Origin: Escherichia coli
GTDB taxonomy: Bacteria > Pseudomonadota > Gammaproteobacteria > Enterobacterales > Enterobacteriaceae
Assembly: GCF_003334335.1 (NCBI RefSeq)
Contig: NZ_QOWQ01000088.1
Direction: 5' to 3' (one strand)
DNA length: 2,395 nucleotides
The notes under the pieces were generated by a model. It worked only from the letters and a program-made list of their open reading frames with translations. It did not search any database and had not been told where the DNA came from. The translations under genes were made by a program, and so were the position numbers. Numbering within the stretch: the first letter of the stretch is position 1; every line of letters starts with the position of its first letter. Below are positions 53 to 2,168 of this stretch, piece by piece.

Positions 53-1117
53 GTGCGGGTATTACTTCGACCTGTTCCGGTACCGGAACTTGGGCTGGTG
101 GTCCTTAAACCAGGCCGTGAATCCATGCAGGTATTCCATAACCCTCGAGTACTGGTGGAGCCGGAACCGAAAAGCATGCGTAATCTGCCGTCCGGAGTCG
201 TCCCTGCTGTTCGCCAGCCGCTGGCGGAGGATAAATCATTACTGCCATTTTTCAGCGATGATCGGGTGATTCGTGCTGCTGGTGGCGCTGGGGCACTGTC
301 TGACTGGCTGTTGCGTCATGTCAAATCCTGCCAGTGGCCTCATGGTGACTATCATCACAGTGAAATCGTCATACATCGTTACGGTACCGGCGCGATGGTG
401 TTGTGCTGGCACTGCGACAACCAGCTGCGTGACCAGACATCCGAATCACTCGGGCAACTTGCTCATCAAAACCTGTCAGCATGGATGATTGACGTCATCC
501 GTCACGCAATCAGCGGTACGCAGGAGAGGGAGTTATCGCTGGCCGAATTATCCTGGTGGGCGGTCTGCAATCAGGTGGCTGATGCGCTTCCGGAGTCTGT
601 ATTGCGTCGTTCACTGGGATTACCGGTGGAAAAAATCCGCTCCGTATACAGTGAGAGCGACATCGTACCGGGAGAACAGACAGCCACTAGCATACTGAAG
701 CAGCGCACAAAAAATATTGCGCTACCGCCTCACGTCCACCAGCACCAGCAACAGAACCCACCACAGGAAAAGACGGTGGTCAGCATTGCCGTTGATCCGG
801 AATCTCCGGCTCAGTATCTCCAGCGCCAGAAACCACAACGGGAAGAGATGCCTGTATACACGCGCTGGGTAAAAACGCAGAAATGCATGACGTGTGGCAA
901 TCAGGCAGATGATCCGCATCACATCATTGGTCATGGACTGGGAGGTATGGGAACAAAGGCTGACGATTTGTTTGTTATTCCGTTGTGCCGTAAATGCCAT
1001 AACGAACTACACGCCGGAGTAAAAGATTTTGAAGAGAAACACGGCAGTCAGCTGTTGTTGCTGATTCGTTTTTTAATGCACGCGAGAAATTCGGGTGTTC
1101 TGAAGTGGAAAGCATAA
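53..1117 (+). CDS. DUF968-like prophage protein with C-terminal HNH/His-Me-finger-like zinc-binding motif (putative nuclease)
   Basis: 1065-nt ORF (354 aa) with GTG start at 53, GGAGG at 45-49 and stop TAA at 1115-1117 directly abutting the rusA ATG. C-terminal residues 278-320 (nt 884-1012) read CMTCG...DDPHH...LCRKCHNELH, i.e. CxxC...HH...CxxCH-N-x2-H, the HNH/His-Me finger signature. Proteins of this architecture commonly sit just upstream of rusA in lambdoid prophages (family assignment is from memory, not a search). The start is uncertain: the SD-to-GTG spacing is short and in-frame ATGs occur at 125 and 176. Confidence 0.75.
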   Translation: MRVLLRPVPVPELGLVVLKPGRESMQVFHNPRVLVEPEPKSMRNLPSGVVPAVRQPLAEDKSLLPFFSDDRVIRAAGGAGALSDWLLRHVKSCQWPHGDYHHSEIVIHRYGTGAMVLCWHCDNQLRDQTSESLGQLAHQNLSAWMIDVIRHAISGTQERELSLAELSWWAVCNQVADALPESVLRRSLGLPVEKIRSVYSESDIVPGEQTATSILKQRTKNIALPPHVHQHQQQNPPQEKTVVSIAVDPESPAQYLQRQKPQREEMPVYTRWVKTQKCMTCGNQADDPHHIIGHGLGGMGTKADDLFVIPLCRKCHNELHAGVKDFEEKHGSQLLLLIRFLMHARNSGVLKWKA

Positions 1118-1486
1118 ATGACCGAGCGCATAGAATTTGTTTTGCCTTACCCGCCGACGGTGAACACTTACTGGCGACGCCGTGGCAGCACATATTTTGT
1201 ATCAAAAGCCGGGGAGCGTTATCGCCGGGCAGTGGCGCTTATTGTTCGCCAGCAGCGACTGAAATTAAGCCTGTCCGGAAGGCTGGTAATCAGGATTATT
1301 GCAGAGCCACCGGATAAGCGTCGTCGTGACCTGGACAATATTCTGAAAGCACCGCTGGATGCGCTGACGCACGCGGGGTTGTTAATGGACGATGAGCAGT
1401 TTGATGAAATCAATATTGTACGTGGCCAGCCAGTATCTGGTGGACGGCTGGAGATAAGAATTACAGAGGTGGGTGTGCATGAATAA
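1118..1486 (+). CDS. rusA: Crossover junction endodeoxyribonuclease RusA (Holliday junction resolvase)
   Basis: 122-aa ORF whose ATG immediately follows the upstream stop (TAAATG at 1115-1120). The translation carries recognisable RusA blocks: LPYPPTVN.YW near the N-terminus, PDKRRRDLDN (catalytic aspartate cluster), DALT.AGLL.DDEQ, and GGRLEIRITE near the C-terminus. The size matches the ~120-aa RusA family. Confidence 0.9.
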   Translation: MTERIEFVLPYPPTVNTYWRRRGSTYFVSKAGERYRRAVALIVRQQRLKLSLSGRLVIRIIAEPPDKRRRDLDNILKAPLDALTHAGLLMDDEQFDEINIVRGQPVSGGRLEIRITEVGVHE

Positions 1487-2168
1487 CCAGTATTTACAGT
1501 TTGTTCGTGAGCAACTCATGATTGCCACTGCAGATCTCAGTGGGTCGACAAAATGCCAGCTGGAAGCCTGGCAGGAAAATGCCCTGTTCGATACAGGGCG
1601 TTACAGACGCAAAAAAATTCGTTACCGCGATGAGGTAACCGGAAAAATGATCACGCGGGATAATCCCCCGATCCAGGGTAAACAATCACTGGCGAAAGGC
1701 TCATCAATTGCGCTGGTCAGTCCTGTTGAGTTTGCAACATCATCGTGGCGGCGTGCCGTTCTGGAACTGGAAGAACATCAGAAGGCGTGGTTGTTGTGGT
1801 GTTATGGCGGAAACATTTGCTGGGAGCATCAGATCGCGATAACGCAGTGGGTGTGGAGTGAATTTAAAACTCAGTCCGGCTCCAGAAAAATTGCAGTGAA
1901 AACGCTGGAGCGTGTGAAGAAGTTGATCTGGCTGGCGGCACAGGATGTCAGAGGATGGGTTACCGGGTGTGAGGTCTACCAGAGACAGGAGCTTGCCAGA
2001 CTGTGTGGAGTTAAGCCTGATAACTGGAGCCATAATTATGCGAACTACTGGCGTGAGATGTGCGATATTTTTAAGCGCCTCGATAGAGAATCCTTGATTT
2101 GCTCCGTGAAAATAAGAGCGCAACAAAAAGCGACCTTTTCACGACGAGATATTGCAAAAGTCAATTAA
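1479..2168 (+). CDS. Putative late-gene antitermination protein Q-like (assignment by synteny, not by recognised motif)
   Basis: Open frame with stop TAA at 2166-2168. I prefer the ATG at 1479 (MNNQYLQ..., 229 aa) over the GTG at 1473 because GAGGT at 1466-1470 gives an 8-nt spacer; this start overlaps the rusA stop by 8 nt. The gene sits immediately downstream of rusA and about 70 nt upstream of a strong intrinsic terminator, the canonical position of Q in lambdoid phages. I do not recognise a diagnostic Q motif and see no CxxC zinc-finger pairs, so the function is inferred from gene order. Confidence 0.5.
   Translation: MNNQYLQFVREQLMIATADLSGSTKCQLEAWQENALFDTGRYRRKKIRYRDEVTGKMITRDNPPIQGKQSLAKGSSIALVSPVEFATSSWRRAVLELEEHQKAWLLWCYGGNICWEHQIAITQWVWSEFKTQSGSRKIAVKTLERVKKLIWLAAQDVRGWVTGCEVYQRQELARLCGVKPDNWSHNYANYWREMCDIFKRLDRESLICSVKIRAQQKATFSRRDIAKVN

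Follow-up and report, generated by a model that had tools for sequence, protein, structure and literature searches.

Gene context and layout of the protein

We analyzed a window of 2,395 nucleotides of Escherichia coli DNA (contig NZ_QOWQ01000088.1), which lies late in the nin region of an Escherichia lambdoid prophage. It carries the gene for a 354-residue protein of the DUF968/YdfU family, followed by rusA and the gene for antitermination protein Q. The DUF968 protein contains a short stretch rich in proline, histidine, glutamine and asparagine. This stretch is very probably a lineage-specific, intrinsically disordered, weakly constrained and slippage-prone spacer that joins an N-terminal module (residues 1-220) to a C-terminal nuclease module (residues 240-354). 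The gene and its parts are laid out as follows.

53..1117, plus strand: coding sequence of the 354-residue DUF968/YdfU-family protein, with a GTG start and a TAA stop (list of open reading frames; Shine-Dalgarno sequence; Pfam, PHROG and RefSeq homologues)
53..712, plus strand: N-terminal module, residues 1-220, with a beta-hairpin plus helix 105-125 and then a helical region, 131-220
713..769, plus strand: lineage-specific insertion of about 18-19 residues (about 221-239) relative to the median spacer of the family (D203-K240 spacer; Pfam DUF968 alignment)
725..766, plus strand: P/H/Q/N-rich low-complexity stretch PPHVHQHQQQNPPQ, residues 225-238 (translation; entropy, hydropathy and TOP-IDP; shuffle tests)
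731..775, plus strand: segment predicted to be disordered, residues 227-241 (AlphaFold2)
737..748, plus strand: tandem duplication CACCAG-CACCAG, encoding His-Gln-His-Gln, single-copy in most alleles (nucleotide alignment of five alleles; Tandem Repeats Finder)
770..1114, plus strand: C-terminal module, residues 240-354, with a conserved extended segment (VDPE-P..M.RPK..RW) and a His-Me/HNH zinc-finger core
884-1012, plus strand: the His-Me/HNH zinc-finger core within the C-terminal module, residues 278-320

The Shine-Dalgarno sequence GGAGG lies 5 nucleotides 5' of the GTG start, and the same start is used in two RefSeq homologues, H1 (352 residues) and H16 (354 residues). The protein belongs to Pfam DUF968 (PF06147; E = 3.1e-63), with residues 160-346 aligned to model positions 1-169 of 171, and phrog_96, "HNH endonuclease", covers its full length (E = 1.1e-164). 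NCBIfam and PADLOC yielded no family for it.

Composition of the stretch

Nucleotides 728-766 (CCT CAC GTC CAC CAG CAC CAG CAA CAG AAC CCA CCA CAG) translate as PHVHQHQQQNPPQ (residues 226-238). An earlier note on this DNA, made from the sequence alone, had placed a Gln/His-rich low-complexity linker there. The stretch is real, and only its start needs a trivial correction: the string quoted in that note, PPHVHQHQQQNPPQ, has 14 residues and begins one codon earlier, at residue 225 (nucleotide 725).

Thirteen of the 14 residues at 225-238 are Q, H, P or N, a count that none of 20,000 shuffles of the protein's residues reached (the maximum, 12, occurred twice); this test is post hoc, since the residue set was picked with the sequence already known. 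In an unbiased test, the lowest-entropy 14-mer of the whole protein begins exactly at residue 225, at 2.07 bits, and 111 of 5,000 shuffles (2.2%) contained a 14-mer as low. The 15-residue window over the stretch is also the most hydrophilic and the most disorder-prone of the protein on the TOP-IDP scale. At the nucleotide level, Tandem Repeats Finder reported CACCAG in 3.7 copies (period 6) at 737-758, at a minimum score of 30 only. Scans with Rfam and for promoters and terminators yielded no credible candidate at 728-766. The minus strand has a hairpin resembling a terminator at 779-758; it falls within the coding region and was disregarded after comparison with chance expectation.

Variation among homologues

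We compared the protein with the 120 nearest database clusters, all above 92% identity. Most of these homologues have 352 residues and some have 351, 350 or 354, and their recurrent internal indels are confined to the stretch: residues 229-230 (His-Gln) are missing in 118 of 120, and residue 235 in 18. A nucleotide alignment of five alleles resolved these differences into codon units. The window and E. coli SW070917 carry CACCAG-CACCAG and the remaining alleles one CACCAG, while the 351-residue allele has lost a further CAA or CAG codon. All indels observed in the stretch (6 and 3 nucleotides) are in frame, and the full open reading frame is kept in all 120 homologues. The duplicated allele is rare (3 of 121 sequences), and identical copies of it were found in at least 8 complete E. 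coli genomes with a 65-nucleotide query. Substitutions accumulate in the same place: among 112 close homologues, residues 221-240 form the most polymorphic 20-residue bin of the protein, with 15 of 20 columns variable.

Over greater distances the variation becomes larger. In 37 diverse full-length homologues, each representing a 50%-identity cluster, we measured the spacer that separates the conserved anchors D203 (in "ESDI") and K240. It varies between 13 and 51 residues with a median of 18; those of P0154 and P0140 have 13-15 residues, and the 36 residues of the window are the second longest. The Q/H/P stretch is wholly missing from most of these homologues. The Pfam alignment agrees, as it places 187 residues of the query on 169 model positions, with model position 60 at residue 220. 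Given a spacer of 36 against a median of 18, about 18 residues (about 221-239) represent a lineage-specific insertion at the junction. The earlier suggestion that short trinucleotide-like runs here can differ in length between homologues is thus borne out by the CACCAG and CAR (CAA or CAG) indels and by the 13-51 residue range, and neither the length nor the sequence of the stretch is conserved.

Predicted order

An AlphaFold2 model built from a 62-sequence alignment had a mean predicted local distance difference test score (pLDDT) of 89.8 and a predicted template modelling score (pTM) of 0.60. Residues 227-241 are the only segment with a pLDDT below 50, whereas the flanking 10-residue blocks score 81-93 and 87-98. 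The stretch is therefore not predicted to be ordered, in agreement with the earlier note. It lies between helix 211-220 and a coil that extends to residue 251. Residues 251-270 are also mostly coil and have a pLDDT of 87-92. A pTM of 0.60 despite a pLDDT of 89.8 is consistent with an uncertain relative placement of the two halves in the model, and the N-terminal module modelled alone reached a pTM of 0.73.

The low predicted order and the variability also favour the flexible interdomain linker that the earlier note had proposed. The segment does not directly connect two beta-beta-alpha cores, however: about 95 residues of helical domain (131-220) come before it, and a conserved extended segment (242-266) comes after it.

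The modules on either side

The C-terminal module shows the beta-beta-alpha-metal fold of His-Me finger (HNH) proteins. Pfam HNHc_6 matches it with E = 2.9e-7, and the expected residues are in place: a catalytic His at the end of strand 1, a metal-ligand His/Asn in the helix and zinc ligands of the Cys4 type. Conservation is strong at H289 and H290 (49/55 and 51/56 sequences), D305 (53/53), H316 (46/56) and H320 (46/54), and extends to C278, C281, C312 and the C/H at position 315. On these sequence features, the C-terminal module is predicted to be a zinc-dependent His-Me/HNH nuclease. YbcO (PDB 3g27) is its sole sequence relative in the PDB. This fits a previous classification (Jablonska et al. 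2017, PMC5714182), in which DUF968/YdfU and YbcO share His-Me finger group 7 and RusA and Q are noted as neighbours. Curtis et al. (PMC4118853) have discussed the DUF968 proteins of Gram-positive phages as Orf-like domains fused to HNH.

The N-terminal module is less clear. Four Cys/His positions form a conserved tetrad in it (C93, C/H101, C118 and H/C121), with D122-N123 next in the chain, an arrangement that mirrors the C...C...C-x-x-H/C-H-N pattern of the C-terminal module. No Pfam family, HNH included, matched residues 1-159 in any of 30 members; the homologous N-terminal halves match DUF968 model positions 1-60 in 23 of the 30. A search of PDB sequences with a profile of the module returned no relative, only noise (E of about 1), and the position of the general base, H102, is His in just 21 of 48 sequences. 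The module thus lacks both a sequence-level HNH match and a conserved catalytic His, and if it derives from an HNH domain, it is probably degenerate. An internal duplication of the two modules was considered at the sequence level and rejected, as profile-profile comparison with hhalign was not significant (P = 0.026, probability 1.9%). The earlier note had described two HNH-like segments on either side of the linker. The C-terminal one is confirmed, and the N-terminal copy is plausible at the fold level but lacks the sequence-level match. These features hint that the unannotated N-terminus may hold a second, probably degenerate, HNH-like zinc module.

The two halves also tend to separate in database searches. 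With phmmer against 1.8 billion representatives, many matches split into query residues of about 1-222 and about 239-350. Two PHROG families follow a similar division, phrog_11007 covering residues 2-134 and phrog_1588 residues 239-353. BLAST also matched proteins whose N-termini are unrelated, and in 8 of these 24 cases the high-scoring segment pair begins at residues 237-242. The partners of such C-terminal matches include fragments of methyltransferase or tail-fibre genes, which may be products of prophage deletions, so this evidence of modularity is no more than suggestive.

Fused and split forms of the gene were also seen. Three long open reading frames (P0145, P0179 and P0181) join the N-terminal 150-260 residues of a DUF968 protein to tail-fibre sequence, and are probably what deletions have left in decaying prophages, or else chimeric assemblies. 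Natural fission of the gene at the linker was considered for two proteins and rejected for both. Contig ends truncate the N-terminal-only protein P0192 in each of the three contigs that carry it (L003, L004 and L005), and the C-terminal-only protein P0234 comes from a rearranged metagenome contig in which residues 168-227 lie on the opposite strand. The three independent contigs of P0192 end at the same point in the DUF968 homologue, after residue 246, which suggests a repeat-induced assembly break in the conserved HNH part. In the rearranged contig (L006, 1631-2824, SIRA22-1...scaffold_4580), residues 1-183 and 269-350 of the homologue are on the plus strand with residues 168-227 between them on the opposite strand. 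This inverted partial duplication ends near the linker and may reflect either a genuine rearrangement or faulty assembly.

A probable passive spacer and its alternatives

We propose that the spacer would act solely as a passive connector, so that its exact sequence and length would not be under selection. Because a run of CAC, CAG and CAA codons encodes it, replication slippage would add or remove whole codons. The duplicated CACCAG (an extra His-Gln) in the window and the CAR codon missing from other alleles would be products of this process. We infer this slippage origin of the indels, together with flexibility of the segment in the real protein and a lack of specific function. The scans and homologue comparisons did not point to a motif or an RNA element at the stretch, nor to phase variation or a hotspot of recombination.

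Several observations weigh against a disordered spacer between two modules. The unbiased test gives the low complexity only moderate significance, with 2.2% of shuffles as low, and a shallow alignment in insertion columns by itself lowers pLDDT, which may partly explain the low score in place of true disorder. Pfam treats residues 160-346 as a single family across the stretch. In most homologues, moreover, helix 211-220 runs nearly straight into the conserved segment at K240, so the halves may be tightly apposed and the stretch a surface loop. This last point opens a possible, if doubtful, alternative, in which the stretch is not a tether but an expandable disordered loop on the surface, at the tight junction of one compact two-lobed protein with segment 242-266 packed against the rest. 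Since about 10 of the median 18 spacer residues belong to helix 211-220, most homologues are essentially without a linker, and the high pLDDT of residues 251-270, although they are coil, implies packing; the Pfam family covering both sides of the stretch points the same way. On the other hand, the pTM of the whole protein, set against that of the N-terminal module alone, suggests that the orientation of the halves is poorly defined, and the C-terminal module occurs with unrelated N-termini and as a PHROG family of its own.

Recombination offers a different account of the variation, in which the stretch is a preferred mosaic junction where lambdoid prophages swap the N- and C-terminal halves of the gene. 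The window and H1, its best full-window match in E. coli, diverge by about 12% over nucleotides 100-742 (the start being approximate) and by at most 1% from 743 onward, and the last difference between them is the 6-nt indel itself. H16, for its part, is identical to the window at nucleotides 149-945, which indicates mosaic ancestry. The DUF968 gene is indeed mosaic, with one junction within the linker. However, a maximum chi-square analysis of 1,088 pairs drawn from the 112 close homologues gave 142 significant breakpoints scattered along the protein (near residues 44, 103, 134, 210 and 242-250), with 15 at 242-251, 8 at 210-222 and no concentration at 225-240. The recombination hotspot suggested by the step in divergence at nucleotides 742/743 is not borne out by this scatter, and a preferred junction at the stretch is improbable. 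Functional readings of the repeat fare worse. HxHxH patterns can bind Ni or Zn, and the H-V-H-Q-H run sits in a predicted zinc-dependent nuclease. A metal-binding or short linear interaction motif is nevertheless very unlikely. Only the rare duplicated allele (3 of 121) has the third His, the common alleles read HV--HQQQ or HA--HQQN, most of the distant homologues are without the whole segment, and no conservation points to a motif. A short tandem repeat of polymorphic length might also recall a contingency locus for on-off switching of the gene. With two perfect copies only, units of 6 and 3 nucleotides whose observed indels all stay in frame, a full open reading frame in every allele seen and neither frame-shifting nor a promoter effect, phase variation can be virtually dismissed. 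The most probable explanation of the stretch is still the passive, slippage-prone spacer.

Neighbouring genes

Downstream of the DUF968 gene, two further genes were assigned in the window.

1118..1486, plus strand: rusA, Holliday-junction resolvase (list of open reading frames; NCBIfam RusA, E = 2.9e-26, under the curated cut-off; RefSeq annotation of the homologous locus)
1479..2168, plus strand: antitermination protein Q gene (transferred from the RefSeq annotation of the homologous locus H1)

The genes are tightly packed. The stop codon of an upstream open reading frame (TAA, 49-51) abuts the DUF968 start in the junction TAAcGTG (49-55), the DUF968 stop abuts the rusA start in TAAATG (1115-1120), and the start of Q overlaps the rusA stop at 1479-1486 (ATGAATAA). 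Abutting and overlapping junctions along the upstream open reading frame, DUF968, rusA and Q suggest translational coupling along an operon.

The top full-length matches, from complete E. coli genomes, have 95.5% identity and are annotated as DUF968 domain-containing protein, RusA family crossover junction endodeoxyribonuclease and bacteriophage antitermination protein Q. In the homologous prophage of these matches, hokD lies upstream and lysis and terminase genes lie downstream. About 4,400 of 5,426 complete E. coli genomes contain the 5' two-thirds of the DUF968 gene. The H16 locus diverges from the window in rusA and has DUF1133 downstream instead of Q.

A strong terminator hairpin of bidirectional appearance (AAAAAACCACCGCCAGGTGGTTTTTTTT) was found 3' of Q at about 2230-2260, roughly 60-90 nucleotides past the Q stop, and the arrangement resembles the region of the short PR'-tR' transcript, the target of Q. 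Across this region (2170-2262), Rfam returned sub-threshold matches alone: isrK at 19.4 bits (gathering score 50), Phe_leader at 28.3 bits and STnc370 at 29.4 bits, the last on the minus strand.

Relation to known proteins and significance

The closest known system is Pfam DUF968 itself, with YdfU of the E. coli Qin prophage. RefSeq homologues of 95-96% identity bear the name "DUF968 domain-containing protein", and RusA and antiterminator Q follow directly downstream, the neighbourhood described in PMC5714182. Nothing essential sets our protein apart from this family: the window carries an allele with the rarer duplicated His-Gln, giving 354 residues rather than the usual 352. The N-terminal 159 residues and the linker are undescribed in Pfam or the literature. 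YbcO (DUF1364, from the DLP12/phage-82 prophage) is a stand-alone protein of about 96 residues that has no N-terminal module and hence no linker. The C-terminal module finds its best structural match in Ref of bacteriophage P1, a RecA-dependent HNH nuclease (PDB 3plw). The likeness is one of fold only, as a profile search of PDB sequences detected no sequence similarity to it at E <= 1; Ref also lacks the 220-residue N-terminal module. Another P1 protein, PdcB, is a distant full-length homologue with 26-27% identity over 90% of the query (H49 and H50; M95666.1, 3032-3952, and AF234173.1, 88636-89556).

As a spacer, the stretch resembles generic Gln/Pro/His-rich disordered linkers with slippage-driven length polymorphism: its composition is biased, its predicted order is low, its codon-repeat indels stay in frame, and it is poorly conserved while its flanks are well conserved. 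It differs from them in being very short (about 14-19 residues) and in having only two perfect repeat units.

One might speculate further that DUF968/YdfU proteins carry two His-Me fingers in tandem. The N-terminal one, degenerate, HNH-like and zinc-binding, would recognize a DNA structure together with the helical domain, and an active Ref/YbcO-like HNH module would follow across a junction free to vary in length. The length of the linker would then adjust how far cleavage reaches from recognition on recombination intermediates that are handled together with the adjacent RusA. We regard this scheme as rather unlikely.

The stretch itself matters little: it is an ordinary feature of a common prophage gene, a benign spacer prone to slippage. 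For annotation and alignment, it can be handled as a variable region and not as a signal. What is modestly new is the domain map of the YdfU/DUF968 protein, with an N-terminal module at residues 1-220, a junction at 221-239 and a Ref/YbcO-like HNH module at 240-354. Together with the possible degenerate HNH-like zinc module at the N-terminus, this map could help in the design of constructs for these proteins.
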